Source of the DNA: Candidatus Saccharimonadales bacterium | Lineage (GTDB): Bacteria; Patescibacteriota; Saccharimonadia; Saccharimonadales; OMJO01 | Length of the DNA: 64,000 nucleotides | Direction: 5' to 3' | NCBI GenBank assembly: GCA_038216175.1 | Contig: JBBQQG010000001.1 | Location: forward strand, 10,033 to 74,032 | Shown here: piece by piece, positions 37,508 through 64,000 of the stretch | Layout: every line of letters begins with the position of its first letter | Numbering within the stretch: position 1 is the first letter of the stretch | Notes under the pieces: generated by a model | Databases searched by the model: none | What the model saw: only the letters and a program-made list of their open reading frames with translations | What the model was told of the DNA's origin: nothing | Program-made: the position numbers and the translations under genes

Positions 37508-40500
37508 TTACTGCAGAGTGGCAAGTGCTTCGGCAGCTTCTATTTCTTCTGGTGATCGATATCCTGTTCCAACTGGAATTCGGCGTCCTAAGATGACATT
37601 TTCTTTAAGACCGAACAAATGGTCGACTTTACCGCTGGTAGCAGCTGCAATTAGGACTCTAGTTGTGTCCTGGAACGAAGCAGCACTTAGGAATGAATCA
37701 GTCGATAGGCTGGCTTTGGTAATACCAAGCAGCAGCTGCGTTACTTTTGCCGGCTGTTTGCCAGCTGAGACAAGTTCTTCGTTAGCTACAACTACAGCCA
37801 GCTTGCTGACAATATCACCAGTGACAAAGGTACTGTCGCCGGCTTCTTCAACTTGAACTCGGCTAAACATCTGACGGACAATAATCTCTAGGTGCTTATC
37901 GGCAATGTTTTGTCCTTGAGAGGCAAAGATTCTTAGAATGTCGTTCATGATGTAGCGCTGAGTTGCTTCGACTCCTTGAAGTCGCATCAGCTCGTGTAAG
38001 TTAATTGAACCGTTAGTTAGTCTCTGACCTGCAACTACTTTGTCGCCGTCTTTTACAACAAGCTGCTTAAAGCTTGGGATCTCGTATTTTTCAACACTCT
38101 TTGATGTCGGAGACAAGGTAATTACTTTCTTAGAGATATCGGCTTTTCCGGCCATAGGAGCGATAAGCGGACTTGATCCGTCTTCTTTAGCAGCAATTAC
38201 GTCGCCGATAGATACATCCGATCCGCTGGCTATTTGAGCTTTGCGGCCATCAAGTTTCAGTTCAATGATTTCAGCGTCGTTAGCTGTAACTTGAACTACA
38301 TAATGCTCGCCTTCTTCCCAGGTTGAAACAAGTCCGGGAATTTCAGCTAGATAGGCTTGTCCCTTTGGTGTTCGTACTTCAAACAGTTCCTCGACACGGG
38401 GAAGTCCAGACGTAATGTCGTCGCCGGCAACTCCTCCTGAGTGGAAAGTCTTAAGCGTCAGCTGGGTACCAGGTTCGCCGATACTCTGAGCAGCAATAAC
38501 ACCGGCCGGGTGGTGTCCGGCTACTAGTTCACCGGTAGCTGGATCAAGACCGTATGATTTGCGACCAACACCCTTAACACTGGTACAGCTAAGTACGCTC
38601 ATGATCTTTACGCCGTCAAGTTCTTCATTTGCGTCGATTTCTTCGGCCATTTGTTTGGAAATTAGCTGACCTTTTTTGACTATGCCTTTTACTTCTTCGG
38701 CAGTGAATCGTCCTACTAAACGAGATGCGTAAGGAACGCCGATTTCGGCTGAGTCGGAACGATAAATTGCAAAACCGGGATCGTCAACTTCTTCGTCAAG
38801 CGTAAATACATCTTGTGAAACATCAACTAGACGGCGAGTTAGGTAGCCTGAGTCAGCGGTTTTAAGTGCGGTGTCAATCATACCTTTTCTAGCACCTCTA
38901 GTAGCCGTAAAGTATTCTAGAGGTGAAAGTCCTGACATATAGTTAGATCTAATCGGCAGTTCAATTGACCGTCCAGTTGCATCGGTGGTAACACCAAGCA
39001 GTCCAACGGCAGTCATAACTTGTCCAATATTTCCTCTGGCTCCAGATACTACAGCAATCGACATTGAACTGTCTTCTTCGGCAAACTGGGCGCTCAATGT
39101 CTGCTGGACAAAGTTAGTCGTATTTGTCCAAGTTTCGACGGTTAAACGGTAGCGCTCTTCATCAGTAATGAATCCTTGGTCGTATTGTTCAGCAATTTCT
39201 GCAGTCTTGTCCTGACCCTCATCGAGTATGCCTTTTAAGCCTTTAATTTCGTTAAAGTCACCCATTCCCATAGATATTCCGGACCTTGTGGCGTAGACGA
39301 ATCCGATGTCCTTTAGATCATCGGCAATTTCTGCAGTCTTGTCCTGGCCATACATTGCGTAGGCTAGTGCCATAGCTGCACCGAGACGTTTTTTAGTCAT
39401 CGCTTCGTCGAGGAAAGGAAAGTCTTCTGGGAATATTTCGTTAAACAGCATTCGGCCAAATGTAGTTGTTCGAACTTCACCTCTAAACGGTGCTCTAACT
39501 GGACTTTGAAGTGTCAGCGAACCGGCGTCGTATGCCATCAGTGCTTCTTCAATTGATGCAAAAGCTTTTACTTTCTTACTGGCACCTGGTCGGTCGTATG
39601 TCAAGTAGTAGCAGCCAAGCACGATATCTTGTTCAATATGTAAAATCGGTGAGCCATCAGCTGGTTTAAGAAGATTACGGTTACTAGCCATAATTTCTCT
39701 AGCTTCGTTCTGAGCAGCGTCAGAAAGTGGCAAGTGAACTGCCATTTGGTCGCCGTCAAAGTCAGCATTAAAACCTTTACAGACAAGCGGGTGAAGTTGG
39801 ATGGCTTTACCTTCAATTAGTACTGGTTGGAAAGCCTGGATACTTAAACGGTGAAGCGAAGGAGCTCGGTTAAGTAGCACGTATTTGCCCTTGATTACTT
39901 CGTCTAGTGCATCCCAGACTTCGGTTTCACCGGTTTCAATCATCCTAGTAGCTGATCGAATATTATGAGCGTGCTCATTAACAATCAGGTGTCCTATGAC
40001 GAATGGTTTGAATAGTTCAAGCGCCATCATCTTAGGCAGGCCGCACTGGCTTATTTTAAGTTCCGGTCCGGCAACAATTACTGATCGGCCGGAGTAGTCG
40101 ACTCGTTTTCCAAGCAAGTTTTGACGGAAACGTCCCTGCTTGCCTTTTAACATGTCAGATAGACTCTTGAGTCGTCGCCTCTGTCCGGTGGCAGCCACTG
40201 CTCGGCCGGAACGGGCACTGTTGTTGTCGATTAGAGCGTCGACAGCTTCTTGGAGCATTCTTTGTTCGTTTCGTCTAATTACTTCCGGGGCATTTAAATC
40301 GATAAGTTTCTTGAGCCGATTGTTACGGTTAATCACTCTTCGGTATAGATCGTTTAAATCGCTGGTTGCGAATCGTCCGCCGGTTAATTGAACCATTGGT
40401 CGAAGATCTGGAGGAATAACAGGTAGAACCGTCATACACATGCTGTTAGGCTTTATGCCGGCCCGCTCCATACTCTCAAGCAGTCTAAGCCGCTTCATTA

Positions 40501-41317
40501 TCTTCTTTTTCCTTTGGCCTTTAGCTTCTTCAGTTTCAATATCTAGTTCAGCGATTAGCTTCGACAAATCAATTTCATCGAGCAGTTCTTTTAGGGCTGC
40601 ACCGCCCATTCCGACAGTGATTAGTGATCTAAGATCGTCAGGCAGCGACCGGTAATCGGTTTCAGATATAAGTCTTAGCTTTTCTAAACTGTCAAACTGA
40701 ACTTTTAATGCGTCAAATTCTTTTGACAACTCTTCTAGTTCTTTAGTCTGCATTTCAGCCAGTGCTTTAACGTTGGCATTCTCGGCTTCAGCTTCTTTGG
40801 CAAATCGCAGTTTAATCGCTTCTGATCCAGCATTAAACTCGGCTTCCTTATCGGCAAGCATTTGGTTTCGTTTGTCGCTGTTAACCGACTTTATGATGTA
40901 GCTGGCAAAGTATGCCACTCGCTCTAGGTTTTTTACTGTCATACCAAGTAGTAGTCCGATAGCTGACGGTGTACCACGCAGGAACCAAATGTGAGCAACA
41001 GGAGCAGCCAGGCTGATATGGCCCATTCGCTCTCGTCTGACAATTGATTTTGTGACAATTTCACCGTTTTTATCAATCGCTGCTTCCCTCGATCTTACGC
41101 CTTTATATTTTGCGTCGTGCGGATTTATATCTTTAACTGGTCCGAAGATCCTTTCGCAGAATAGTCCGTCGCGCTCTGGTTTTTGAGTTCGGTAGTTAAT
41201 CGTTTCTGGTTTTGTCACTTCGCCGTGACTCCAATCGAGAATATCGGTCGGACTGGCTACTGCTAGTCTTACGGCATCAAAATCGGCAATGTTGGTTCCG
41301 TATGAATATCGTCTCAT
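37508..41317 (-). CDS. rpoC: DNA-directed RNA polymerase subunit beta'
   Basis: NADFDGDQMAVH catalytic motif. Start set to the ATG at 41317 (MRRYSYG), with a GAGGAGG SD and 1 nt after the rpoB stop. Confidence 0.97.
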   Translation of the reverse strand: MRRYSYGTNIADFDAVRLAVASPTDILDWSHGEVTKPETINYRTQKPERDGLFCERIFGPVKDINPHDAKYKGVRSREAAIDKNGEIVTKSIVRRERMGHISLAAPVAHIWFLRGTPSAIGLLLGMTVKNLERVAYFASYIIKSVNSDKRNQMLADKEAEFNAGSEAIKLRFAKEAEAENANVKALAEMQTKELEELSKEFDALKVQFDSLEKLRLISETDYRSLPDDLRSLITVGMGGAALKELLDEIDLSKLIAELDIETEEAKGQRKKKIMKRLRLLESMERAGIKPNSMCMTVLPVIPPDLRPMVQLTGGRFATSDLNDLYRRVINRNNRLKKLIDLNAPEVIRRNEQRMLQEAVDALIDNNSARSGRAVAATGQRRRLKSLSDMLKGKQGRFRQNLLGKRVDYSGRSVIVAGPELKISQCGLPKMMALELFKPFVIGHLIVNEHAHNIRSATRMIETGETEVWDALDEVIKGKYVLLNRAPSLHRLSIQAFQPVLIEGKAIQLHPLVCKGFNADFDGDQMAVHLPLSDAAQNEAREIMASNRNLLKPADGSPILHIEQDIVLGCYYLTYDRPGASKKVKAFASIEEALMAYDAGSLTLQSPVRAPFRGEVRTTTFGRMLFNEIFPEDFPFLDEAMTKKRLGAAMALAYAMYGQDKTAEIADDLKDIGFVYATRSGISMGMGDFNEIKGLKGILDEGQDKTAEIAEQYDQGFITDEERYRLTVETWTNTTNFVQQTLSAQFAEEDSSMSIAVVSGARGNIGQVMTAVGLLGVTTDATGRSIELPIRSNYMSGLSPLEYFTATRGARKGMIDTALKTADSGYLTRRLVDVSQDVFTLDEEVDDPGFAIYRSDSAEIGVPYASRLVGRFTAEEVKGIVKKGQLISKQMAEEIDANEELDGVKIMSVLSCTSVKGVGRKSYGLDPATGELVAGHHPAGVIAAQSIGEPGTQLTLKTFHSGGVAGDDITSGLPRVEELFEVRTPKGQAYLAEIPGLVSTWEEGEHYVVQVTANDAEIIELKLDGRKAQIASGSDVSIGDVIAAKEDGSSPLIAPMAGKADISKKVITLSPTSKSVEKYEIPSFKQLVVKDGDKVVAGQRLTNGSINLHELMRLQGVEATQRYIMNDILRIFASQGQNIADKHLEIIVRQMFSRVQVEEAGDSTFVTGDIVSKLAVVVANEELVSAGKQPAKVTQLLLGITKASLSTDSFLSAASFQDTTRVLIAAATSGKVDHLFGLKENVILGRRIPVGTGYRSPEEIEAAEALATLQ

Positions 41318-41318
41318 A

Positions 41319-44300
41319 TTAAACCTCCTCGCTTTCTTCGCTAACATTAATCGAGGCGGTTGTCGCGTCGTATTCTTCATTTTCCATTCCGGCAGTTGGC
41401 TCGGTCGGCAGTGTATCTTGAAGTTCTAATACCATGAACTCATCGACTGCAGCATCAACAGAAACATCGACGTCTGAAGTTGAAGGAGCTGGTACATCGA
41501 CGTCAGCAAGGTGAGTAGCTTCGTCTTTAATATTTTCAGCTAGTACTGCTTCGGCATCGATTACTTCGTCTGATACTATCAGGTCAACTTTAAGTCCAAG
41601 ACCCTGAAGTTCTTTTACAAGAACGTTAAAGCTCTCAGGTACTTTCGGTCCGACAATTTCAGTCTGCTTGATGATCGATTCGTATGCTTTCGATCGTCCA
41701 TAAACGTCGTCTGATTTGATCGTTAGCATTTCCTGCAAAGTATTGCTGGCACCGTAGGCTTCTAGAGCCCAAACTTCCATTTCGCCAAATCTTTGGCCAC
41801 CGTTTTGGGCTTTTCCACCTAGTGGCTGCTGAGTAACCATTGTGTATGGTCCAGTAGAACGAGCGTGGATCTTATCGGCGATCATATGGTTTAGTTTGAT
41901 CATATACATCGATCCGACAGTCGTTCGCTCAAAGAAGGCATCGCCGGTTCGTCCATCGAAAAGTTGCTGCTTACCGTCTTCTGGTAGTCCTGCTTGTTTT
42001 AGCAGATCATGAATCTGAACGATTGATACTCCATTAAAAGCTGGGCTAGCTACCTTCATACCAAGTGCTCTGGCTGCCATACCTAAGTGAGTTTCAAATA
42101 ACTGGCCAATGTTCATTCTACTAGGTACACCTAGCGGGTTTAGTACAATATCAACAGATGTTCCATCGGCTGTAAATGGCATATCTTCAACTGGTAGAAT
42201 ACGGGCAATAACACCTTTGTTACCATGCCTTCCGCCTAGTTTGTCGCCGACAGCTATTTTTCGCATCTGGGCAACGAACACCTGAATCTGCATAATTACG
42301 CCGGCTTTTAGCTCATGTCCGTTAGCCCGGCTAAATACTTTTACGCCGACTACTTTTCCGTGCTTGCCGTTACTCATTCTTTGCGACGTATCACGGACTT
42401 CTTTAGCTTTTTCACCGAATATTGCTCTTAGCAGTCGTTCTTCTGAGCTTAGTTCCTGTTCGCCTTTTGGAGTAATCTTTCCGACTAATATGTCGCCGGG
42501 GTGTACTTCGGCACCAATTCTAACTATTCCGTCTTCATCAAGGTGTCTTAGTGCGTCTTCTGAAACATTAGGAATATCTCTCGTAACTATTTCTGGTCCC
42601 AGTTTAGTTTCTCGAACTTCAACCATGAAATCTACAATATGAACTGATGTCAGGGTGTCATCTTCGACTAGTTTTCTGGAGATAATGATGGCATCTTCGA
42701 AGTTATATCCGCTCCAAGGCATAAATGCGACTAGCAAATCTTTTCCAAGCGCTAATTCGCCACCTTCAATCGACATTCCTTCGATTAATGAATCGCCTTC
42801 TTTTACCGTTTGGCCGCTCGATACTACGACACGCTGGTTAATACTAGTACCTTCGTTTGATCTTATGTAATGCTGAGGTCTGTAAGTTACACTACCTTCT
42901 TTATACTTAACGATTACTTCGTCAGCATTTGCTAGTGACACCTCGCCGTCGGCTTCAGCAACAATTAACTGTCCGGTGTTTCTAGCGGCTGTAGTTTCCA
43001 TGCCAGTTCCGACAATTGGTGCACTAGGCTTAACTAGCGGTACTGCTTGACGCTGTTGGTTGCTGCCCATAAGTGAGCGGTAAACGTAGTTTTTTTCAAT
43101 AAATGGAATTAAACCGGCACTTGAGCCGATAATCTGCATTCTCGATGCGTCCATATGGGTGACGTCGTCGGCATCAACTTCACCGGCTTGAAGCTTTGTT
43201 CTTGCTGAAACACGGTTTAGTAGAAAGTGTCCTTTTTCGTCGTAGTCTTCCGATGCGTTTACGATAACTGCCGATTCTTCCTGTGATGCGTCCAGATAAA
43301 CAACGTCGCGGGTAACTCTGGCTTTTACGGGCCAGGTTGCCCGGTTTTTTACAGCTGCCAGTTTTTTAGCTTGATCGGCAGTAATAACTTGACCGGCTTT
43401 TACGATAGTCGTCCCTTTTTCGTCTTCTAGATTAACCGAAGCAATCTCACCAGCTGCATCTTTTGCAGGCACGGCACTGACTACTATCCGGTAAGGAGTT
43501 TCGATAAATCCATAGTCGTTAATTCGGGCATGGCAAGCTAGATTAAGTACTAATCCGATGTTGGCACCTTCAGGAGTTTCTACAGCACAAATTCGTCCGT
43601 AGTGGGTAGCGTGGGCATCACGAACTTCAAATCCAGCACGTTCTCTCGATAATCCGCCTGGGCCCATAGAACTGAGTCGTCTTTTATGAGCTAGTTCACT
43701 CAGCGGATTAATCTGGTCCATAAACTGTGATAGCTGACTGCTAGCAAAAAATTCCCTTACGGCTGCCACAATTGGACGGGCGTTTATAAGCTGAGCTGGT
43801 GTAACTGTTTCAATTTCGCACATGCTCATACGGTCTTTTGTGTTTCGCTCCATTCGAAGCAGACCAATTCTAAACTGACGCTGAACTAGTTCGCCGACTA
43901 ATTTAACCCGTCTGTTAGCTAGGCTGTCGATATCGTCAGCTGGTTCCTGAGTATTATTTAGTCTAATGATCTCGGCAATTATTGCCGTTAGATCTTCCAG
44001 ACGCATAATTCTATTTTCAATTGTGTTTGAAATATCTAGATCGAGCCGTTTGTTGATCTTATATCTTCCGACGCGGCTAAAATCAAAACGTTTGAAATTA
44101 TAAAACATGTTCTCTAGCAGGCTGCGAGCGTTATCAACAGTCGCAAGGTCGCCTGGTCGCAGACGTCGGTAAACTTCGATCAAGGCATCATTGGCACCTT
44201 TAGTCGGATCTTTTTCGATTGTCTGCTCGATATAGCTGGTTTTACCGGAGTCGACGTGTTTGAAAGTATCTTTCATATGAGCGTCTGTTAAACCGAGTGC

Positions 44301-44897
44301 CCGCATTAATGTAGTAACTGCAATTTTTCTTTTTCGGTCGATTTTAACGAATATAGCACCGGAGGCAGCTGTTTCGAATTCTAGCCAAGCTCCGCGTCCC
44401 GGTATTACTTTGGCACCATATAAGTTGTGCGTTCCATGGGCATCAGATGTAAAGAAAACACCGGCTGAGCGGATTAGCTGTGACACTACAACACGCTCGG
44501 CACCGTTTATTACAAATGTACCGCGGTCGGTCATCCAAGGATAGTCTCCTAGGTATATTTCTTGTTCTTTTACTTCACCAGTTACTTTATTTGTCAGCTC
44601 GACAGTTGCTTTCAGCGGAGCTTCGAAGCTTACGTTATTTTCTCTAGCTTCAGATTCTGGTACTTTAGGCGGTTCAAACCGGTAGTCTTTAAATGATAAT
44701 GATAATTTTGTTCCGGTATAGTCGTCGATCGGACTTATTTCGGCAAGCAGTTCACCGAGTCCTTCGTCTACGAACCACTGGAAAGAGCGGTTTTGATGAT
44801 CTACCAGGTTTGGCAGGTCGATTACGTCGTCTGTTTTGGTAAAGAACTTGCGCGTCGACGGCGCAATTTTAGCGGACTTACTTGCAGTTTTAGCCAT
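41319..44897 (-). CDS. rpoB: DNA-directed RNA polymerase subunit beta (acidic C-terminal tail)
   Basis: Full-length beta subunit signatures (e.g. GRHGNKGV, FGEMEVWALEAYGA). Confidence 0.97.
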   Translation of the reverse strand: MAKTASKSAKIAPSTRKFFTKTDDVIDLPNLVDHQNRSFQWFVDEGLGELLAEISPIDDYTGTKLSLSFKDYRFEPPKVPESEARENNVSFEAPLKATVELTNKVTGEVKEQEIYLGDYPWMTDRGTFVINGAERVVVSQLIRSAGVFFTSDAHGTHNLYGAKVIPGRGAWLEFETAASGAIFVKIDRKRKIAVTTLMRALGLTDAHMKDTFKHVDSGKTSYIEQTIEKDPTKGANDALIEVYRRLRPGDLATVDNARSLLENMFYNFKRFDFSRVGRYKINKRLDLDISNTIENRIMRLEDLTAIIAEIIRLNNTQEPADDIDSLANRRVKLVGELVQRQFRIGLLRMERNTKDRMSMCEIETVTPAQLINARPIVAAVREFFASSQLSQFMDQINPLSELAHKRRLSSMGPGGLSRERAGFEVRDAHATHYGRICAVETPEGANIGLVLNLACHARINDYGFIETPYRIVVSAVPAKDAAGEIASVNLEDEKGTTIVKAGQVITADQAKKLAAVKNRATWPVKARVTRDVVYLDASQEESAVIVNASEDYDEKGHFLLNRVSARTKLQAGEVDADDVTHMDASRMQIIGSSAGLIPFIEKNYVYRSLMGSNQQRQAVPLVKPSAPIVGTGMETTAARNTGQLIVAEADGEVSLANADEVIVKYKEGSVTYRPQHYIRSNEGTSINQRVVVSSGQTVKEGDSLIEGMSIEGGELALGKDLLVAFMPWSGYNFEDAIIISRKLVEDDTLTSVHIVDFMVEVRETKLGPEIVTRDIPNVSEDALRHLDEDGIVRIGAEVHPGDILVGKITPKGEQELSSEERLLRAIFGEKAKEVRDTSQRMSNGKHGKVVGVKVFSRANGHELKAGVIMQIQVFVAQMRKIAVGDKLGGRHGNKGVIARILPVEDMPFTADGTSVDIVLNPLGVPSRMNIGQLFETHLGMAARALGMKVASPAFNGVSIVQIHDLLKQAGLPEDGKQQLFDGRTGDAFFERTTVGSMYMIKLNHMIADKIHARSTGPYTMVTQQPLGGKAQNGGQRFGEMEVWALEAYGASNTLQEMLTIKSDDVYGRSKAYESIIKQTEIVGPKVPESFNVLVKELQGLGLKVDLIVSDEVIDAEAVLAENIKDEATHLADVDVPAPSTSDVDVSVDAAVDEFMVLELQDTLPTEPTAGMENEEYDATTASINVSEESEEV

Positions 44898-54134: not shown

Positions 54135-54595
54135 TTTTCTCTCTTTATTTGTTATTTGCGAATGCCTTCAGTCTTAACCGTTAGCATAATTACTATGTAC
54201 TATACATACAGATGAGAGTAATGCAAATAGATAATTTAAAAGCATTTATTAGCAAAGACAAGAAAGCAAATTTAAGGACTCCGAGAGTTTTATTACAACT
54301 AAGCTAACTTGTACTTATAAGCCGTCTTTAAGTATCATAAAAGTATATATCGTGAGTTCGCATATTCGATCCTTGCCGCTCCATAATCACTGGTATTACT
54401 TAAATACATTCAGAAATATTGTCAGATAAAAAGCTATATATAACATCTGGTGAAGTTGATTCTTTAGCTTCGAAAGTATCTGTAAAATTCTAAAAATGAT
54501 AATATAGTCAACCTATATTAATCCACAAGCAATTTGACAGACGATATGTGATGGTAGATTATATAATTGATAGTTATTTAAAAACAAAGAAAAAT

Positions 54596-56164
54596 ATGCT
54601 GACTGCAAAAAAGAAACAAACTAAAATAGATAAACTTGCTAATTTTTTAAGACCATCTAGTCCGGTAAAGGGTTTGTTGATATTTCCTATTGTATTTGCG
54701 CTTACTGGTGGTAGTTTTGCAGTTTTAAAAAGCTTTGCTGCAACTCCGCCGCCTGTTAATACGGTTCGGCCTGTTGTTACTGGCTCCCCTGTTGTTGGCC
54801 AAGTCTTAAGTGCAACGACCGGAACTTGGACCGGTAGTCCGACTAGTTATGCCTATCAGTGGCAGGATTGTGCCGGATATTTCTGTTTTAACTTAGCTGG
54901 TGGGAGCGGTTCTAGATATACAGTTACTAAGGCTGATGTCGGCCTTGTCATTAGGGTTGAAGTGGTTGCCTCTAATTCGTTTAGTTTTGCATCGTCTGCA
55001 TCATCTCCAACAGCGGTTGTCAGTGTAGTTAAAGACAGTTTCACCAAGTACGTAATTGACGCTAGTCCGGCTGGTACGGTCGTCGAAAAGACTCTGGTTG
55101 ATTTAAACGGCGATGGTAAGGCTGATGCTGTAATCGGAGAAGAACCTTCACCTTCTCAACCGGGTGGTGGTGGCATTTACTGGTATCAATATCCAGCTAG
55201 CGGGATACCAAGTGACGTTTGGACTAAACATATGATTATTTCTAGCGGTACAGCCTACGAAGACTTGAAAGCTTATGACGTTAATAACGATGGCCGGCAA
55301 GACATTATTGCCAGCCTTAATAACAACGTTTATTTATTTATTAATCCAACAACGGTTAATGGCGTATGGCAAAAAGTACTAATTGGACCTGGAAACGGTG
55401 AGGATACAATTGCACTTGGAGATATTGACGGTGATGGTAAGACCGATATTGCTACTAATTCTTATATCTATTTTCAAAATAGTCCGACTTCATGGCAAAC
55501 AATTAGGTTGAGCACCAGTTTTAGTGCTTCGGCCCTGCTTGATAGTGGTTCAGGCAAAGGCCGAATTGATTTAGTTGGCAATGGGGCTAGTTCTCCATAT
55601 AACATTGTTTGGTATCAGAACCCTAGAGACGTCGGAGGAAATGCTCGAACCGGTACCTGGACTATGTTTACGGTTGGACCGGGTTACTTTTGTTCTGGTG
55701 GACTTAACCAGTGTGATGAAGGCTCAGTTGCAACAGCCTCTACAGCTGATCTTAACGGCGATGGACGTATGGATGTCGTTGTAGGACAATCTGAAGGCAG
55801 TCCGGCTCCTCCAGGCGGTTTAAAATGGTTTGAGGCTCCTCTAAATCGTACCCAGCCCTGGATAGTGCATAACATTAATACTAGCTATACAGATACTCAT
55901 AATATTATCGTTGCGGATATTAACCGTGATGGGACTCCTGATCTAGTTACCGGTGAGCAAGATCAGTCAGTAAATAAGCGCATCTCGGTTTTTTATAATG
56001 ATGGTAGAGGAAACTTTAATGAGCAAGTTTTGTCGCATGATGCAACTCACAACGTCGCTGTTGCCGACGTCAATAAAGACGGTGATCTGGACATTTTATC
56101 TTCCCCGCATGGATACTTTGGCGGTCCTCACCCGATAGAGCTGTTTGTAAATAATCACTTCTGA
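54596..56164 (+). CDS. FG-GAP/VCBS repeat (integrin-alpha-like beta-propeller) surface protein with an Ig-like repeat
   Basis: Six D-x-[DN]-x-D-G-x-x-D motifs (DLNGDGKAD, DVNNDGRQD, DIDGDGKTD, DLNGDGRMD, DINRDGTPD, DVNKDGDLD) and an Ig-like repeat (PVVTGSPVVGQVLSATTGTWTGSPTSYAYQWQDC). The start is uncertain: GTG 54548 or ATG 54596. Confidence 0.75.
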   Translation: MLTAKKKQTKIDKLANFLRPSSPVKGLLIFPIVFALTGGSFAVLKSFAATPPPVNTVRPVVTGSPVVGQVLSATTGTWTGSPTSYAYQWQDCAGYFCFNLAGGSGSRYTVTKADVGLVIRVEVVASNSFSFASSASSPTAVVSVVKDSFTKYVIDASPAGTVVEKTLVDLNGDGKADAVIGEEPSPSQPGGGGIYWYQYPASGIPSDVWTKHMIISSGTAYEDLKAYDVNNDGRQDIIASLNNNVYLFINPTTVNGVWQKVLIGPGNGEDTIALGDIDGDGKTDIATNSYIYFQNSPTSWQTIRLSTSFSASALLDSGSGKGRIDLVGNGASSPYNIVWYQNPRDVGGNARTGTWTMFTVGPGYFCSGGLNQCDEGSVATASTADLNGDGRMDVVVGQSEGSPAPPGGLKWFEAPLNRTQPWIVHNINTSYTDTHNIIVADINRDGTPDLVTGEQDQSVNKRISVFYNDGRGNFNEQVLSHDATHNVAVADVNKDGDLDILSSPHGYFGGPHPIELFVNNHF

Positions 56165-56364
56165 TTGAACTGAGTTTAACTGTTTAACTTGTTCTTTTAA
56201 GCTAGTCTGCAATCGGTCGTCGTATTATACGTTTCAAATAATCTTTAAGAATAGATAATAGCTTTGTTAATTTATTAATATATTTAAAGTGGCTACGGTT
56301 GTGATATGTCACAAATATCTGTATTATCTGTTTTGACATATTTATTATCTTATTTTGAAAGTAT

Positions 56365-57453
56365 ATGGAATCTAGTCCAACACAACCTCCGCAGCCAGAA
56401 GTCCACTTTGAGCCCGGTATTCACACTTTAAGTCAGAGCTCGTCAGAACAGTTAGATAAGAAAGTGCGATCTGGTAAAGTTGGTGCTAATCAGTGGAACC
56501 AGGCAGTCACCGAAAGATTGGCAGATTACAGCCCGGAAATGATCGCTATCGACAGCCTTGTCTGTCCGCATGATAAACGAAAATTAACAATCGACGACAA
56601 AGTTAATATATGGGAATTTATGCCAGACCGTCCGACTTTAATAAATGGTACCGACAGTATTAATGTCTTGCTCGGAGATAATATCTATAATGAACAGCCT
56701 GCTTCCGATTTAGTGCCATCTGGATTAGCATTAGCCGACGCTGGAGCTATATTTATTGCTGGTAATTTAGGTGGCGTGCAGTTAGATAAAATGGCTCATG
56801 GCTGGCGAAAATGGATGGCTGGTTATGATAACGTATCCGGTAATTTCGATGATGAGCTAGCTAGTAAGGTTTCGCGGCGCAATTTTTTTAGAATAGCTGG
56901 TTCGATTGCCGCAGTCGCCGTATTTACATCGGATAGAACTGCTGCATATTCGCCGTGGCAGTCTGTAACTTCGTTTTTTTCGCGTATTGCTGACGTTCAA
57001 CAGCACTATAGTCCGGAACAATTATTTACACTTAATAAATACGTAGAAGGGCGGACTGCTCTGTTAATTCAAAAGATGTACGACGGACTTTCGGCAACTA
57101 ATCAAAAAGTTGGCTCAGTCATTTTGGGTTCCGGACATATAAATGATTCTGTGCAGCTTCTACATGATCAGGAATTTCGTCTTGATTTAATAGTTGATCA
57201 TACTAAGCTTCTTCTCGATGCCGCCCCTACTGGCCTTGGATTGTATAGTTATGATAAAGAGAACCTAAATACTCGGGTTAATTTCCAGATTGATGCCATA
57301 CTTCAGATGCAGAATAATTATGCTGTCGTTTCGGTCAGCGAACCTGATAATAAGAGGTTTAAAAAGGACGCCCTTAAAGAAATAGACCGAATAGTCAAGC
57401 TTGATCATTACTTTACGTCAGAACCTATTAAGCAGGCTATCGGCAAGATTTAA
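56365..57453 (+). CDS. hypothetical protein with a central Tat-signal-like segment
   Basis: 362-aa ORF. SRRNFFRIAGSIAAVAVF lies at about residue 170. Confidence 0.5.
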   Translation: MESSPTQPPQPEVHFEPGIHTLSQSSSEQLDKKVRSGKVGANQWNQAVTERLADYSPEMIAIDSLVCPHDKRKLTIDDKVNIWEFMPDRPTLINGTDSINVLLGDNIYNEQPASDLVPSGLALADAGAIFIAGNLGGVQLDKMAHGWRKWMAGYDNVSGNFDDELASKVSRRNFFRIAGSIAAVAVFTSDRTAAYSPWQSVTSFFSRIADVQQHYSPEQLFTLNKYVEGRTALLIQKMYDGLSATNQKVGSVILGSGHINDSVQLLHDQEFRLDLIVDHTKLLLDAAPTGLGLYSYDKENLNTRVNFQIDAILQMQNNYAVVSVSEPDNKRFKKDALKEIDRIVKLDHYFTSEPIKQAIGKI

Positions 57454-57519
57454 ACTAGCAGTTTATAATTATTTTAGAACACTGCTGTATTTGGATTTAT
57501 AAAGAAGTCGAACTATTAA

Positions 57520-57921
57520 TTATGATTCGACTAAAGGTACGTTTAATACATTTGTTATGTGAAGTCTGGCAGCTCTTTCCGGTGGCTGTAAATGCTTTTC
57601 TACAACCCAGTAGTTTGTGTCTTTTAAAATAATATTCTCTATTTTTGATACATCGTGTTTTGGCTTAATAATAAATTGTTTGCGGTTATTGTGTATCTCA
57701 TTATAAATGCTTAGTTTAATTTCTATTTTTTGTAGGCAGTTTTCATCTGAGCATTCACAGAAAAAATGAAAGGTAAGATTTTCGAGCTCAGGCAGCGATT
57801 TGTCTTTCTCTTCTTCGGCGATCTCTTTTAATTTATCGAGTTCCGTCTGGACGCGTTCATTAGCTTGTCGAAAAACTACTTCGTTTTCGATCTGCCGCCT
57901 CTCAGACTGTATCTTCTCCAT
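57520..57921 (-). CDS. hypothetical protein (133 aa, coiled N-terminus, CEC..C motif)
   Basis: FHFFCECSDENCLQKIEIKLSIYNEI...FIIKPKHD pattern. No function assigned. Confidence 0.5.
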   Translation of the reverse strand: MEKIQSERRQIENEVVFRQANERVQTELDKLKEIAEEEKDKSLPELENLTFHFFCECSDENCLQKIEIKLSIYNEIHNNRKQFIIKPKHDVSKIENIILKDTNYWVVEKHLQPPERAARLHITNVLNVPLVES

Positions 57922-58008
57922 GTATTCATTATACTAACAGTTTTACAAATAAAACAACAGCGTTATCGATACTGTTCTCTTGATAGGGAATGGGGGGTAT
58001 TTGAAGTA

Positions 58009-58037
58009 TTGTTAATTATTGAATTTTCTGTTATAAT
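58009..58037 (+). promoter_or_regulatory. candidate promoter for the 58073 operon
   Basis: TTGTTA, 17 nt spacer, TATAAT, 35 nt upstream of the ATG. Confidence 0.3.
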
Positions 58038-58072
58038 ACTTTAGTTAAATTAACGGAACTTTATTCATAGTT

Positions 58073-58480
58073 ATGTTAAAAGAAAATCTTCAAGCACCTA
58101 ACGATAGCCATGAAGTAAAAGCAAAGTTAAGCCTTGGAATAAAGGCATTTGGTGTTATAGCGGTTGGTGGTCTGGCAGCACTGGGTGCTCACATTTCGGC
58201 TAATCACTTTAAGCAGGATGCTAGATCTTCTGCGCATTCGGCTGAAGTGGTTTATGACGGCAGCCTGCACCGCCATATGGATATGTCCAACATTGCATTG
58301 AAGCCAAAAGAACTAGCAACTATTTCGGCCGATTTAAAAACTCATGATGACGATATTAGATTAAACGACTTTCTTAACCGTGTCGGTGTCGGATTTGTCG
58401 TTGCCTCGGCACTGCCGCTGGCCGGGTTTGCTGCTTTGGAACTTTCCGGAAACGGCCAGATTGCAGACCAGACAGAATAG
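58073..58480 (+). CDS. membrane protein (hypothetical, 135 aa)
   Basis: Two hydrophobic helices (GIKAFGVIAVGGLAALGAHI and VGVGFVVASALPLAGFAALEL). Confidence 0.5.
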   Translation: MLKENLQAPNDSHEVKAKLSLGIKAFGVIAVGGLAALGAHISANHFKQDARSSAHSAEVVYDGSLHRHMDMSNIALKPKELATISADLKTHDDDIRLNDFLNRVGVGFVVASALPLAGFAALELSGNGQIADQTE

Positions 58481-58503
58481 TAGTAGTAAACCTTAACCTA
58501 GCT

Positions 58504-58532
58504 TTGGTTTTATCGTATATTTATTGTATAAT
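58504..58532 (+). promoter_or_regulatory. candidate internal promoter giving a near-leaderless transcript for the 58541 ORF
   Basis: TTGGTT, 17 nt spacer, TATAAT. The -10 box ends 8 nt before the ATG at 58541. Confidence 0.25.
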
Positions 58533-58540
58533 ATTGTCTT

Positions 58541-58894
58541 ATGCCTGTTGAGAATATTTACGATAGCCAGATCGAAAAAAACGTTCTGGGATTTATGCCA
58601 GAGCAGTACGACGAGTTTGATTTTGCAAAAAACCATGAACAATTATTATCTGGTATCAGATCCAGACTAATTGGTGTTCTTAGTCTCGGCGAATCTATAA
58701 AAGTGCAACAGCTAATCGGCCGATTTGGCGATGACTATGACAGGTTGACGCCGGAACAGACTGAGCTGCTTACCAGACCGGACACATCGGAAATAGAGGC
58801 TCTTAGAGACGAGTTTAAAAGTGAGCGGACCATTCTTACTGCCGTTAAAGCAATTTATAACCAGCGACTTTTGCGTAGTGCGACTGAAAATTAA
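58541..58894 (+). CDS. hypothetical protein (117 aa)
   Basis: Its stop lies 6 nt before the helicase TTG start, so the two are probably translationally coupled. Confidence 0.5.
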   Translation: MPVENIYDSQIEKNVLGFMPEQYDEFDFAKNHEQLLSGIRSRLIGVLSLGESIKVQQLIGRFGDDYDRLTPEQTELLTRPDTSEIEALRDEFKSERTILTAVKAIYNQRLLRSATEN

Positions 58895-58900
58895 AGAACT

Positions 58901-61507
58901 TTGCCCCATCAACAGAATATACTAGATGATATATCGTCTTTTTTAGCTACTGGTAAAAAAGAAGGTTACGTTGAGCTGGCTACGGCCGGTGGTAAAACTT
59001 ATTTAGAATCTAAAATAACCGATACTTTAGTCGGTGCCGGACTTAGAGTTCTGGTTTTATCTAATACCAAACATGCCAATGATCAGTTTATCGGTTTAAA
59101 TGGCAATAAGGGGCTGAGTCAGTTTGCATCTAAACAAACTATTTCTAAAATTGGCCGCCAGTACGGTGGGTACGTTGCCAGTCCAAGCGATCAATTAGTT
59201 ATATCTACTTATCAGTCGCTGAACGGTTTTTCGGCTGACAATCGGCTCGGTGACTTCGATGTAATTGTCTGTGATGAGGCTCACCGTGCGCTGGGAGATA
59301 AAACACGGGCAAACTTAATAAAATCATATCCCCATGCAATTAAGCTCGGGTTTACTGCCACTCCAAATTTTGGTATTAACAAATCGGTTGATCAGGTGTT
59401 TCCGGAAGTTATCCACAGCCTTAATTTACGTGAAGCGATCGACAGCGATATTGTCGCACCAGTCCAGTGTTTAACCTATACGACTGGTGAGCAGATACAG
59501 ATAGTCGATCCAACGCATCAGGATTTTTCAATTAGGGAACTTAGGCGCCTGATAAACCTTAAGTCTAGAAACGAAAAAGCTGCTTCGTTTGCCTGCGATT
59601 TTGTCCAAGATGGACGACGGGGCATTGTTGCCTGTTTGCCGGGTGGTGACTTGGCTCACGCTAAATTAATGGCCCAGGATTTACAAAGACAGGTTATTAC
59701 CGATAAGAACACTGGTCAAAAAAGAAATATTGTGGCTCGGGCGGTCGGTCGGTCAACCGGCAATGATGCTGAGCGCAAGTTGGTATTAAAACAGTTTGAG
59801 GATGGAGAAATTGATGTTTTGACGTTTGTTGATCTTATATCTGAGAGTTGGGACAGCGATCAGGCCAGCTTTTTGATAAATGCCCGCCCGACTACATCTA
59901 TCGTAAAGATTACCCAGCAGATCGGCCGGGTTATTAGAAAGAAAAAAAGCGGTCTTCATTCGATTGTTGTCGACTTTATCGATGACAATATTGGCAAGCA
60001 GCAGAAGACTGCCCTCCAAGCTCTAGGCGAAGACAGGGTTGAGCTAAACACTATCTACGGAAATCGGGGCGAGCCAGGCAGTGGGACTCATTCCCTGTCG
60101 TATCTTAGGGGAATACTAAGTCCCGAACTTTATAGCCGCCTAATGAGCGTTGACGGCAGGTTAATTAACGAACTTACGATAGCACCAAAAGAAGATATAG
60201 CTAACACCCGGGCACTTTTATATGAACGTATGCTTGAAAAAGACGGTTTATATCCCGATACCCATCTTTTCGGTATTCCAAATAAAGTTAATCAGGCTAT
60301 CGATCATTCTATTCTTGAATTTGAAGAATTAAACGGTCGACTGCCGACTGCTGACGAGCTGTTCACCAATATTGATGCTAAGCAGCTTCTTGGCGGGCGT
60401 GACAAGGATCTAAGAGATCGTTTCGATAATATCTTACTAGTTAGAGACTATGACCTGCGCGGCACAATGATCGGCAGTACAGAAACAGTATATGACGGCG
60501 ATGATAAGTACTACCGAGATCCTCAAGAGTTAGCAGACGATATGTCTCTTAAAACTGATATTGGTAAAATAATGCTTCTTCTCGATGAACGTAAGCAGTT
60601 TATTTTAAATGAACGAAACGGATTAGTCGGCGACGTTCCGAGAACATACGCCGAAATTGGAGAGTTTTTGGGTATTTCTGCTCCCAGAGTCAGGGATATA
60701 GAATCCTATGCTCTATCCGAGCTTAGCCGTCCTAATTTCGCCGATGTTCGTCTGTCGTCTTACATGTTCGATCCTGACAACGAAAGACGTGTAAAGCTCA
60801 GTTCAGAAATTGCGAAAGTTAGCCTGCTTAATCGTATTGCTAGCGAACCTATCGGTTTACAGTCTTTGCTAATCAGTATGATCTCACCCGGCGACCGTAG
60901 TGCACTGTTTAATCAGGATCGTTCTCACTTCCCTTTAGTAATTCAAAAATTCTTAAAAGATTCAATTGACTACGAAAAAAATAATACTCCGGACTATATG
61001 ATTCACAGTAAATATTTAACTGATGGACATCTAAATAAACTGGGCGATATATATGTGCAAACCAAGAAACTGTTAAACGGAGATTACAACATTTATATAA
61101 AACAGGCTGGTAGCGAGACTAATGATCTACTTGCCAACATTTTTCAGTTTGTTCCCGCTACTATGATTGGAGATACTAGGGTCAAATCGGATGATTCAAA
61201 CTTTTTATATCCCGGACCACTATCGGTGACTTGGAAAGCTGCTGAACGGTACTCCGATATTTTGACTACACTTGATTACTCGAATAGCATTACTGATCTA
61301 GTTTTTAGCTACCATAAAAGCCAGCAAAATAACAATCCAGAATACCAGGTACCTCGTAGAAATTCAGTTGCTAAGTATCTAGGAAATCTACACAACTTTC
61401 AAGTTTTTACGCTTAGTAGTCTAGCCGAGGCTTGGAGTATGCCTGGTATTTATAGTTATGCCGGCCGAGTAATTAGACAAGAACCGCTGGAAACATCACA
61501 GCACTAG
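58901..61507 (+). CDS. SF2 (DEAH/ResIII-type) helicase fused to sigma-70 region 3/4-like domains and an unknown C-terminal domain
   Basis: Helicase motifs I (ATAGGKT), II (VCDEAHRA), III (GFTATP) and VI (QQIGRVIR). Then GIPNKVNQAIDHSILEFEELNGRLPTADEL (sigma r3-like) and LLLDERKQFILNERNGLVGDVPRTYAEIGEFLGISAPRVRDIESYALSELSRP (sigma r4). TTG is the only in-frame start upstream of the Walker A motif. Confidence 0.8.
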   Translation: MPHQQNILDDISSFLATGKKEGYVELATAGGKTYLESKITDTLVGAGLRVLVLSNTKHANDQFIGLNGNKGLSQFASKQTISKIGRQYGGYVASPSDQLVISTYQSLNGFSADNRLGDFDVIVCDEAHRALGDKTRANLIKSYPHAIKLGFTATPNFGINKSVDQVFPEVIHSLNLREAIDSDIVAPVQCLTYTTGEQIQIVDPTHQDFSIRELRRLINLKSRNEKAASFACDFVQDGRRGIVACLPGGDLAHAKLMAQDLQRQVITDKNTGQKRNIVARAVGRSTGNDAERKLVLKQFEDGEIDVLTFVDLISESWDSDQASFLINARPTTSIVKITQQIGRVIRKKKSGLHSIVVDFIDDNIGKQQKTALQALGEDRVELNTIYGNRGEPGSGTHSLSYLRGILSPELYSRLMSVDGRLINELTIAPKEDIANTRALLYERMLEKDGLYPDTHLFGIPNKVNQAIDHSILEFEELNGRLPTADELFTNIDAKQLLGGRDKDLRDRFDNILLVRDYDLRGTMIGSTETVYDGDDKYYRDPQELADDMSLKTDIGKIMLLLDERKQFILNERNGLVGDVPRTYAEIGEFLGISAPRVRDIESYALSELSRPNFADVRLSSYMFDPDNERRVKLSSEIAKVSLLNRIASEPIGLQSLLISMISPGDRSALFNQDRSHFPLVIQKFLKDSIDYEKNNTPDYMIHSKYLTDGHLNKLGDIYVQTKKLLNGDYNIYIKQAGSETNDLLANIFQFVPATMIGDTRVKSDDSNFLYPGPLSVTWKAAERYSDILTTLDYSNSITDLVFSYHKSQQNNNPEYQVPRRNSVAKYLGNLHNFQVFTLSSLAEAWSMPGIYSYAGRVIRQEPLETSQH

Positions 61508-61644
61508 GATTATTTGGCAATTCTTTTTCTCCTAAGATTTATAAAGAATATCTTAAAACCTTTTTAACAGAATTTATAAAAGATAGTGAAACAACGCCAG
61601 TTTAGATTATTGACTGCAGTATTTTTATATGTTTATATATCTGT

Positions 61645-62226
61645 ATGAGTGAGTCATTTGAGGAACGTCACGAGCTATCGGCAGATCAGCTATCACTATC
61701 TCAATTAATTATTGAGCGTACTAAGCGTCACGCCGATGAACTGTCTAATTTTGTAATAGAAAATACCGGGGACTATTTAGATCCAACTATGGTAGTTTTT
61801 AAACTTGATACTTTTAAATTTTCAATTTTAATAGGTGAATGTGATGAATTAGCTTTGCATTATCAGAGATATGATCCTAAGCACGGCTGGGGTATGATGG
61901 GAATTACTCTTTTTAGAGACAGATCTCCGTTTATGATTGATCAGGATTATGATGACTATGGTCCAGAAGATAACGAATATCTCATTGTATCGGTTGAAGA
62001 TAGACCGCCGTTCATTGTTCACAATAAACGAATTAACGTTGATGACGGTATAGATAGTATTTATGACTATCTTGACTCGGTCGGTGATAGCTTGCAACCA
62101 AAGCCGTATTTATTATCTGATAATGATTGCCGGCAGATTACCGAAATTGTGACTAATAAGGAGCTGCCTAAATATATAGATACTGATGAGGGTATTGATG
62201 CTGCTACCAGACCGAACGGTAATTAA
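61645..62226 (+). CDS. hypothetical acidic protein (193 aa)
   Basis: ORF downstream of the helicase. No recognisable domain. Confidence 0.45.
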   Translation: MSESFEERHELSADQLSLSQLIIERTKRHADELSNFVIENTGDYLDPTMVVFKLDTFKFSILIGECDELALHYQRYDPKHGWGMMGITLFRDRSPFMIDQDYDDYGPEDNEYLIVSVEDRPPFIVHNKRINVDDGIDSIYDYLDSVGDSLQPKPYLLSDNDCRQITEIVTNKELPKYIDTDEGIDAATRPNGN

Positions 62227-63025
62227 AAACATCAAAAGATTGACTTGGATTATTAACGTTTATCCAGATATTTGACTCTGTACTTAATATATTTTCAGTT
62301 GTAGTTAAGCAAATATTTATCTCGCTAGTTATCCCCAGATTTTCAAGATAGCTAGACGCGTATTTTGTAATTTGTTTTAGCTGGTATTTATTTCTTGTAA
62401 CTAGCAGAATTATTGGGTAGCTGCCGTAAGACGTAAGAAGTAAGTTAGCATAGTCGTAGTGGTGGTATAGCTCGGATATTCTTAGTTTAACTTTAAAAAA
62501 TGATTTATCGGTTATGTTATCCAGAATAAAATCGGTCTTTTTAGATCTTAAGTATAAATCTGGTTTATTCTTTGGAAAATGATTATATGTAATCAGCTCA
62601 TTTTTAGCATAAATGTCATATTTGGCATTTAATTTTTGTCTTAAGTTAAGGTATATGTCTACAACATTTAAATAGTGCTCTACGTTAGGTTGTGTCAGTT
62701 TTAAATTATGCTGCATATTATGAACTGCTTTTTGGTCGACTTTTAGCTGGTGTTTAATTTGTTTAACTCCAGCTGACAATAAAGTGTAATAGGCACTCTT
62801 TCCAATTAATCGAAAATGCTTATCGTAGACTTTATTGATATAGCCATTTCTATATAGCCAGTTAAGTATGCTGCTAGACGAATCGTATCTACTATTTTGT
62901 CTGTACTTTGATATTTGTACTCCACTCATGAACCTAAATTTGTATAGCAGCATTAATACATTTATTTTGTCTGGTTTTAGTATTGTTCGATTTATTTGTT
63001 GGTTCATGTATTCATTATTTAGCAA
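62204..63025 (-). CDS. replication-relaxation-family-like protein (winged-helix N-terminus), AT-rich gene
   Basis: LKPDKINVLMLLYKFRFMSGVQISKY...ILNWLYRNGYINKVYD resembles the plasmid replication-relaxation family. Assignment is from memory of the family pattern only. Confidence 0.4.
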   Translation of the reverse strand: MLNNEYMNQQINRTILKPDKINVLMLLYKFRFMSGVQISKYRQNSRYDSSSSILNWLYRNGYINKVYDKHFRLIGKSAYYTLLSAGVKQIKHQLKVDQKAVHNMQHNLKLTQPNVEHYLNVVDIYLNLRQKLNAKYDIYAKNELITYNHFPKNKPDLYLRSKKTDFILDNITDKSFFKVKLRISELYHHYDYANLLLTSYGSYPIILLVTRNKYQLKQITKYASSYLENLGITSEINICLTTTENILSTESNIWINVNNPSQSFDVFNYRSVW

Positions 63026-63093
63026 TTATTTCATTAATATATAGTATACTCTGATAGTTTTATTAATTTTTCTTCGTATTTTGTGTTTCTTTT

Positions 63094-63111
63094 GACGTTA
63101 TCGATAACGTC
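63094..63111. promoter_or_regulatory. 18-bp perfect palindrome GACGTTATCGATAACGTC (candidate operator or origin element)
   Basis: Read directly in the divergent intergenic region. A third TTGACGTT half-site lies at 63125-63132. Confidence 0.5.
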
Positions 63112-63211
63112 TGTGTTTAATCATTTGACGTTTTTATAAAATAGTAAATGTTTGCTATTAAAACGCTTATGTAGTTTAGTTATAGGTAAGTAATTATTAG
63201 ATAGCGTAGAT

Positions 63212-64000
63212 ATGTCTAAATCAAAAAAGTTAACTAAACCACAAAAATTTCTAGAACTGATAAAACCTAACAGTTTATCTAAAGGTTTCTTCTCTTTTGC
63301 ACTATTATTCGCTTTGATTGGTGGCGGGTATATGACATTTAAGAGTTTTGCGGCCAGCGGCGCCTACCTGTATTTAAACCCTTCTAGTGCGACAGTTTAT
63401 CCGCAGTCGACATTTGACGTTCAGATATGGGAGCAGAGTGGTACAAGAGCTGTTAATGCTGTTCAGAGCATAGTAACTTATCCGTCAGATAAATTATCGT
63501 ACGTTAGTACTAGTTTTGCCTATTCGAGTTTTAGTATTGTAGCCCAATCAAGTCATTCTAATGGATCAGTCTCAATATCGAATGCCTCGACTACACCACG
63601 AACTGGCGCTCATTTAGTAGCAATCATAAGATTTAAATTTTTAGTATCAAGCAGCAGTGGCATTAGTGTTCCGATAAATTTTGGACCGTCGTCTCAAATA
63701 CTTGCCTCTTCTTCTCCGCCATCTAACATAATCGGCTATACTCAGGGCGCTACGTTTTTGCTTAAGAACCCGCCGTCTTTGGCAACTTACATGTATTTGA
63801 CACCGACTTCCGGTAGTTATTCGATAAAAACTACTCATCAGATAGCTTTAACGGTAATAGATGAGAGTGGCTTGAGTCCGATCAATGTTTTCCAGCCGGT
63901 AGTATCTTATCCGACTAATTTGCTAAGTTATGACCACGCTACTTTCAGTTCGCCCTTGTCTTTGTTCATTCTGCCGTCGATCAATAACGGTGTGCTTACG
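63212..64000 (+). CDS. cohesin-like repeat surface protein, 5' part (runs out of the window)
   Basis: Hand-translated frame is open from ATG 63212 to the window end. N-terminal leader ...FALIGGGYMTFKSFAA. Two repeats of the pattern Y(L/M)YL.P.S......F.V.I.......NA(V)Q..V.YP...LSY, typical of cohesin-type domains. Confidence 0.6.
   Translation, partial: MSKSKKLTKPQKFLELIKPNSLSKGFFSFALLFALIGGGYMTFKSFAASGAYLYLNPSSATVYPQSTFDVQIWEQSGTRAVNAVQSIVTYPSDKLSYVSTSFAYSSFSIVAQSSHSNGSVSISNASTTPRTGAHLVAIIRFKFLVSSSSGISVPINFGPSSQILASSSPPSNIIGYTQGATFLLKNPPSLATYMYLTPTSGSYSIKTTHQIALTVIDESGLSPINVFQPVVSYPTNLLSYDHATFSSPLSLFILPSINNGVLT

Follow-up and report, generated by a model that had tools for sequence, protein, structure and literature searches.

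This work concerns a gene of a Candidatus Saccharimonadales bacterium whose product joins a superfamily 2 (SF2) helicase to domains of a sigma-70 factor. The gene lies in a 64,000-nucleotide stretch of contig JBBQQG010000001.1 (positions 10,033 to 74,032), referred to below as the window. The open reading frame (ORF) at 58901..61507 (+), listed with 868 codons and a TTG start, encodes an SF2 helicase of the ResIII/DEAD-like type, in which motifs I, II, III and VI are intact and two RecA-like domains are present; behind the motor follow a block resembling sigma-70 region 3 and then region 4. In the family to which the protein belongs the order of the parts is fixed: an N-terminal helical domain, the SF2 ResIII-type helicase, a linker, the region 3-like domain, region 4 and a variable tail. 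With moderate confidence we suggest, from the sequences and the predicted structures, that these proteins would be DNA translocases tethered by their sigma module to RNA polymerase and/or to -35 DNA, where they would remodel transcription complexes.

The helicase core

The core with its two RecA-like domains occupies 58901..59995 (+). Reading of the translation located motif I (ATAGGKT) at amino acids (aa) 27-33 (58979-58999), motif II (DEAH) at aa 125-128 (59273-59284), motif III (TATP) at aa 152-155 (59354-59365) and motif VI (QQIGRVIR) at aa 339-346 (59915-59938). The initial annotation, made from the sequence alone, had pointed to ATAGGKT, DEAH, TATP and QxxGRxxR in the N-terminal part, and these were borne out by the translation and by the Pfam models ResIII (E=1e-21) and Helicase_C (E=7.7e-8), both scoring above their cut-offs. 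The generic SWI2_SNF2 ATPase model PF18766 also matched over the motor (E=6e-12). In the PHROG collection there was a strong match to phrog_16, a phage DNA-helicase family (E=1.7e-51), and a sigma family was matched over aa 535-630. The helicase motif residues were invariant in family alignments of 21-32 relatives.

Among proteins of the PDB the core was nearest by sequence to SauUSI (7clg), a type I R subunit, FANCM, Hef and RadD. For structural comparison the predicted full-length model of the closest relative, P0002, was used (mean predicted local distance difference test score, pLDDT, 72; above 85 in the helicase core). P0002 is a protein of 1015 aa encoded by an uninterrupted gene and is 46% identical to the window protein over 99% of the query. 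The best Foldseek matches of this model were chains of TFIIH-containing complexes, which we take to be XPB/Ssl2, followed by SauUSI, RadD and LlaBIII; explicit archaeal XPB matches stood lower in the list. Since the E-values for XPB, RadD, SauUSI and LlaBIII lay within about two orders of magnitude, the core can safely be called an SF2 motor of the duplex-DNA translocase or repair type, without a specific assignment to XPB. The window protein had no Pfam ERCC3/XPB match, and a weak, sub-threshold match to ERCC3_RAD25_C was found solely in L024, one of the second-type fusions described below.

PADLOC models of restriction enzymes and of PbeA matched the motor part only. The restriction-type hits of the window protein in PADLOC and NCBIfam were confined to the motor and remained far under the cut-offs (59.6 versus 550 bits), and Pfam and PADLOC revealed no nuclease domain in it.

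Sigma region 4

Region 4, comprising 4.1 and the helix-turn-helix (HTH) of 4.2, is encoded at 60506..60745 (+; aa 536-615), and its assignment is solid. The Pfam model Sigma70_r4 (PF04545) matched aa 561-608 with E=4e-7 (29.9 bits, gathering score 24.1), and E-values in the relatives went down to 8e-17. In NCBIfam the model RpoD_Cterm matched aa 535-613 (E=1e-8), with many further sigma models over the same span. Comparison with the solved sigma region 4 chains of the PDB by phmmer gave E=1.6e-6, alignment of the C-terminal family profile with Saccharibacteria RpoD by hhalign gave a probability of 98.6% over region 4, and the AlphaFold2 model had pLDDT values of 78-95 there.

In the 32 family members compared, T-R-E-R-I/V-R-Q-I-E, with ..LRHP behind it, is the prevailing sequence of the region 4.2 helix. 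Of the -35-reading residues of primary sigma factors (E. coli sigma-70 numbering), R584 was kept in 21 of the 32 members, E585 in 24, R586 in 28, R588 in 25 and Q589 in 28. Sigma70_r2 (PF04542) did not match the window protein at E<=1, and the alignments with sigma factors begin at region 3.0. Because the protein lacks region 2, with which a sigma factor grips the beta-prime clamp helices and melts the -10 element, it cannot be such a factor.

The region 3-like domain and its surroundings

The preceding block, at 60260..60460 (+; aa 454-520), is a three-helix domain whose likeness to region 3 is supported by profile, pairwise and fold comparisons. A family profile built from 21 members aligned with residues 204-367 of B. 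subtilis SigA in one stretch, from 'IRIPVHMVETINKL' in region 3.0 to the end of 4.2 (E=3e-26). When the C-terminal profile was run against 1.84 billion representative sequences, ordinary sigma factors aligned as single stretches at profile positions ~60-224. Similarly, tblastn of P0002 against plasmids found annotated sigma factors over aa 559/574/586-741 with 33-40% identity and E-values down to 3e-17; in this protein the region 3-like block corresponds to aa 573-640 and region 4 to aa 658-737. The block alone aligned with region 3 of SigA by hhalign (P=3.5e-5, probability 72%), reproducing the alignment of the initial annotation.

AlphaFold2 predicted a confident three-helix bundle at aa 456-515 (pLDDT 77-90). 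The top 50 Foldseek matches of the C-terminal model in the PDB were all sigma chains, and 49 of them aligned over 150-206 columns, which is more than region 4 by itself could yield; the lone exception was a region 4/flap-tip chimera, aligned over 87 columns. Region 3 is supported less strongly than region 4. In a search of the whole PDB with the block alone, sigma chains matched with E-values of only 0.4-2, and the hhalign alignment of the whole C-terminal profile with Saccharibacteria RpoD covered region 4 alone, with no extension into region 3. The reading of this part as sigma regions 3 and 4 without region 2, put forward in the initial annotation, therefore stands for region 4 and for the missing region 2; of the Pfam models named there, ResIII, Helicase_C and Sigma70_r4 were found and Sigma70_r3, whose failure to match had been named as a possible refutation, was not, and region 3 is supported by the weaker profile and fold evidence.

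Between the motor and the region 3-like domain lies a linker of about 55 residues (60089..60256, +; aa 397-452), defined by alignments and a hidden Markov model (HMM). It carries the motifs YLRGIL..LY..L...G.L..L and (W/Y)ER.L..EGLP.E and is conserved in all family members; the HMM found matches (E=1e-12 to 1e-23) in the family only. The linker is not present in fusions of the L020/L024 type. The position of sigma region 3.2 is taken by an acidic connector (60461..60505, +) with variable alignment columns and with pLDDT below 50 at residues 124-142 of the C-terminal-fragment model, in which residue 1 is aa 396. The protein ends in a helical tail of about 250 aa (60746..61507, +, including the stop codon), which was alignable to P0002 only and was predicted by AlphaFold2 with low confidence. 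No family match was found for it in Pfam or NCBIfam, in agreement with the initial description of a C-terminal stretch of unknown sequence.

The gene is interrupted by an in-frame stop codon

The initial annotation had the gene begin at the TTG, behind a separate ORF of 117 aa. The 117-aa ORF (58541..58894, +) is in frame with the 868-aa ORF, from which no more than a TAA (58892-58894) and two sense codons separate it; translation read through the stop gives ...SATEN*RTLPHQQN. The 117-aa product is 48% identical to aa 1-120 of P0002 (phmmer against the P0002 gene, E=2.4e-25), whose reading frame is contiguous. Its helix 'ERTILTAVKAIYNQ' corresponds to the P0002 helix at aa 92-113, which has a pLDDT of ~90 in the P0002 model, and the N-terminal extension is also present in four further relatives (P0003-P0006). 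From the shared frame and the contiguity of P0002 it follows that the true gene is 58541..61507 with an internal stop, that 58541..58891 (+) encodes the N-terminal helical domain, and that the two ORFs are one gene split by the in-frame TAA. ORF callers had truncated the helicase-sigma gene at this codon, and the boundary is corrected here.

The TAA stands opposite a GAA (Glu) codon of P0002. It may be a base error, a recent nonsense mutation or a real split of the gene. Recoding of the stop codon was considered and is unlikely, as TAA ends 32 of the 48 long ORFs in the window and is its commonest stop. Two separate chains may be made from the window copy if translation restarts at the TTG 6 nucleotides (nt) past the stop; alternatively, the copy may have become a pseudogene recently.

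A recent conversion of the window gene into a pseudogene, or a base-call error at the stop, is possible but on the whole doubtful; after such a conversion, the 868-aa protein starting at the TTG would not be made as such. Besides the GAA codon at this place in P0002, the alignment speaks for such an explanation: ahead of the 'HQ' motif, with which the 868-aa ORF opens, all aligned relatives except the window ORF have a minimum of ~40-50 residues, among them a conserved helix. Inspection by eye revealed no Shine-Dalgarno-like sequence before the TTG, and the recognition helix of region 4.2 is degenerate in the window protein (see below). However, the other 868 codons are open, the catalytic motifs are all intact, and a start codon so close behind the stop would permit termination-reinitiation.

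The 60-nt gap in front of the gene (58481-58540) is AT-rich, and by eye a TATAAT was noticed at 58527-58532, which is 8 nt upstream of the start codon ATG (58541). The gene could be transcribed from a promoter of its own, with a leader that would be very short; in a promoter scan, sites were no more numerous than in shuffled sequence. When the profile of the N-terminal domain (58541-58891) was compared with the PDB, three matches were obtained at E<=5, none of them significant; two were to CarD, a factor that binds RNA polymerase (E=0.5 and 1.2).

Distribution of the family

Recurrence of the fusion was established from NCBI, ENA, JGI and Logan assemblies. A search of 5.8 billion proteins yielded about 30 clusters (90% identity) that combine helicase, linker and region 4. 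In the exhaustive search of representatives with the C-terminal profile, 138 proteins were found at E<=1e-30. Among the top 150 clusters (50% identity), at least about 45 were fused to the helicase, recognised by matches that began within profile positions 2-15 and, in the protein, at positions ~420-500. The loci belong mostly to Candidatus Saccharibacteria/Saccharimonadia, with some from other Patescibacteria, and a 'Dormiibacterota' contig (43% GC) carrying a family member is probably misbinned.

A second form of fusion, with helicase and region 4 but neither linker nor region 3, was found at two other Patescibacteria loci, in metagenome-assembled genomes of an unclassified bacterium (L020) and of a Paceibacterota member (L024). 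Close helicase cousins with 37-39% core identity (P0027, P0029 and P0030) end instead in a dsRBD (PF00035) or a NOV_C domain (PF13020), and the motor seems to accept interchangeable targeting modules.

The fusion was not found in 50,697 phage records, 72,556 plasmid records or viral contigs. A phage or plasmid origin of the gene was rejected: there was no full-length match, and the helicase and sigma parts matched different genes.

Two kinds of unusual sigma-related proteins were seen in the databases. P0088 (938 aa) and P0097 (589 aa) consist of some 7-11 diverged tandem region 4-like units ('..RE.KIIRLRYGLD...PL.L.EI..'). P0089 and P0095 are RpoD-like proteins in which the region 3-4 block is duplicated exactly or nearly so; both are likely assembly artefacts, whose profile-search scores are raised by the duplication.

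Genomic neighbourhood

Relatives of the gene were found among housekeeping genes: rplJ-rplL followed by dnaX-dnaB; recG and tyrS; serS-secA-prfB; or pheST. In the loci inspected there were no defence or mobile genes and no defence-system partner around the relatives. Membership in a defence system was rejected, PADLOC having given generic motor matches only. A cluster of neighbours resembling UvrA was also discarded, because it consisted mostly of ABC-transporter ATPases; true UvrA/UvrC occurred only in L035, 5 kb away.

Helicase cousins that lack sigma domains were found to adjoin sigma genes in four genomes. In two Saccharibacteria species (L027, 3569-13155; L028, 2933-12175) the order is rpoC-dnaG-rpoD-helicase on one strand, with the helicase starting at most ~40 nt from the stop of an rpoD that has regions 1.1 to 4. 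In two Peribacteria (L042, 8101-13042; L043, 7924-12808) a sigma-70-family gene with regions 2 and 4 lies divergently beside the cousin. Because a genome has few sigma genes, this adjacency exceeds chance and gives the helicase clade a link to sigma that does not depend on the fusion.

The neighbours of the gene in the window (a 135-aa membrane protein, ORFs of 193 and 362 aa, and a Replic_Relax gene) stood beside none of the relatives in 56 loci. The operon with a small membrane protein suggested in the initial annotation is consequently not a feature of the family. The Replic_Relax gene is a 273-aa ORF (62204-63025, -) with a PF13814 match (E=4e-6) and a weak PHROG replication-initiation match; it lies about 700 nt downstream of the helicase gene and overlaps the end of the 193-aa ORF (61645-62226, +). 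This may be what is left of a plasmid or an integrated element at the right end of the window.

A minus-strand housekeeping block (ribosomal proteins, rpoB/rpoC, clpP, tig, hisS and sortase) ends in a strand switch at ~54.5 kb. The part from about 54300 to 64000 contains mostly genes without assigned function, none of which recurs beside relatives of the helicase, and looks like a variable region. It includes a 538-aa protein (54548-56164, +) with FG-GAP repeats and a dockerin-like match, which is probably secreted or surface-exposed. In the housekeeping block the ORFs of rpoB (41319..44897) and rpoC (37508..41380) overlap by 62 nt (41319-41380); the start of rpoC is probably located further downstream.

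Comparison with known systems

The C-terminal module of the family is colinear with regions 3 and 4 of primary sigma-70 factors (RpoD/SigA) and homologous to region 4 and probably also to region 3, and region 4.2 of most members is almost identical to the consensus TRERIRQIE...KLRHP. Unlike these factors, the family has no regions 1.1, 1.2 and 2, and so neither beta-prime clamp-helix binding nor -10 melting is to be expected of it; recognition residues for the extended -10 element are not apparent, the finger of region 3.2 is unconserved, and an SF2 helicase and an extra tail are added at the N- and C-terminus, respectively.

XPB/Ssl2 of TFIIH and archaeal XPB are SF2 duplex-DNA translocases working at promoters and in repair, and they provide the best structural matches to the motor core of the family. 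Against a closer relationship stand the missing ERCC3/XPB match of the window protein and scores that do not clearly exceed those of RadD or SauUSI. SauUSI (type IV), type I R subunits and RadD have the nearest cores by sequence and are also close in fold. In contrast to SauUSI and the type I enzymes, the family has neither a PLD or PD-(D/E)xK nuclease nor partners that serve as methyltransferase or specificity subunit, and its genes stand in a housekeeping context.

RapA, Mfd, HelD and UvrD/PcrA are RNA polymerase-associated motors, each with its own attachment module. The logic proposed here would by analogy resemble that of RapA (HepA), Mfd and HelD, in which an ATP motor is held on RNA polymerase by a binding module and serves to recycle or displace the polymerase, but the attachment modules are not homologous and the motor belongs to a different subfamily. 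Pfam and NCBIfam detected no CarD_TRCF/RID domain, no UvrB-homology module, no RapA-specific N- or C-terminal domain and no HelD domain in the window protein, and the sole trace of Mfd/TRCF was the non-significant CarD match of the N-terminal domain mentioned above.

MzaA, a sigma-70 family protein of the MZA anti-phage system, likewise has sigma-70 region 4 outside ordinary initiation. The NCBIfam match of the window protein to MzaA over region 4 was weak, however (24 bits, cut-off 800), and neither PADLOC Mza matches nor Mza partner genes were found.

A helicase-sigma fusion was not described in the literature searched; queries on MzaA and on co-occurrence of the Pfam names returned nothing relevant, and the parts of a jumbo-phage paper that deal with 'sigma factor' contained no such fusion. 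In the source databases the family members bear automatic names or none. The remark of the initial annotation that it knew of no described family with such an architecture agrees with what was found. We know of no bacterial RNA polymerase-associated motor that uses sigma factor domains, and to our knowledge a sigma-domain attachment module for such a motor has not been described.

Possible function of the helicase-sigma proteins

In a sigma factor, regions 3 and 4 normally hold the protein on the beta-flap and the -35 element. By the reading that we prefer, a sigma-tethered translocase, region 4 would bind the beta-flap tip of RNA polymerase and/or -35-like DNA, as it does in primary sigma factors, with the region 3-like domain sitting beside it. 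The sigma module would serve as a tether by which the ATP-driven duplex-DNA translocase is brought to RNA polymerase or to promoters, and there the motor would remodel, clear or recycle transcription complexes. The retention of the -35 recognition residues in most members and the location of the cousins beside sigma genes fit a link to RNA polymerase or promoters.

Several observations weigh against this proposal. With region 2 the main interface between sigma and the core enzyme is missing, and the affinity for the core enzyme is uncertain. The 3.2 finger is not conserved in the family, and Sigma70_r3 (PF04539) matched neither the window protein (E<=1) nor nine relatives (E<=0.01). The window copy has the in-frame stop, and its recognition helix is degenerate, SAPRVRDIE as against TRERIRQIE, with three of the five recognition residues changed. 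A subclade of close relatives (P0007-P0009) has kept the linker and lost the sigma module. Clustering of neighbours revealed no partner gene conserved by the family members. Finally, judged by cluster counts, the family is sparse in Saccharibacteria and therefore not an essential component of transcription.

Apart from the question of whether the window copy is intact, three other functions were considered. According to the first, which we regard as unlikely, region 4 would read -35-like elements itself, not docked on RNA polymerase, and an XPB-like translocase would open or reel in the DNA or strip off the sigma-A holoenzyme, making for an ATP-dependent step at sigma-70-type promoters. The kept recognition residues of most members are in keeping with such a promoter-directed motor, as are the TFIIH XPB/Ssl2 chains and archaeal XPB among the top structural neighbours, the weak ERCC3_RAD25_C match in one second-type fusion, and the position of the helicase N-terminal to region 3, the usual place of sigma region 2. 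The rank of XPB is not decisive, though, given the less than 100-fold spread of the Foldseek E-values, and the window copy has lost three of the five recognition residues. In addition, isolated sigma region 4 binds -35 DNA only weakly without the core enzyme.

Still less probable is that the sigma module is an HTH borrowed for a task outside transcription, such as repair, restriction of plasmids or phages, or replication. The module would then be akin to the target-recognition domains found in restriction motors of the SauUSI type and of type I. To these motors the core is nearest by sequence, and PADLOC restriction-enzyme models match it; the cousins exchange the C-terminal module for dsRBD or NOV_C, and in the window a Replic_Relax gene lies 700 nt downstream. 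But a nuclease domain and a defence-system partner are lacking, the similarity spans regions 3 and 4 of primary sigma factors with near-identity in 4.2 ('TRERIRQIE..KLRHP'), which goes beyond a generic HTH, the cousins adjoin rpoD, and the fusion is missing from the phage, plasmid and viral collections searched.

The boldest possibility, which seems improbable to us, is a bacterial analogue of TFIIH-XPB: an XPB/RadD-like translocase would have replaced region 2 in a sigma scaffold. Seated at the sigma site of RNA polymerase and on -35 DNA, such a protein would spend ATP on opening, clearing or resetting promoter complexes of the sigma-70 type in Saccharibacteria and other Patescibacteria. Bacterial initiation of the sigma-70 type is held to need no ATP hydrolysis, and if this reading were true, it would mean an ATP-dependent step in that process.

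That the junction of helicase and sigma parts is an assembly chimera, one of the refutations named in the initial annotation, can practically be dismissed, because the same architecture with the conserved linker recurs in dozens of independent assemblies from the four sources.

If the tethering of the translocase by its sigma module is correct, the family would represent a new way to deliver ATP-driven work to the transcription machinery, in the setting of the genome-reduced and poorly understood Saccharibacteria of the candidate phyla radiation. In addition, the family is a natural test case for the abilities of sigma regions 3 and 4 when region 2 is missing.

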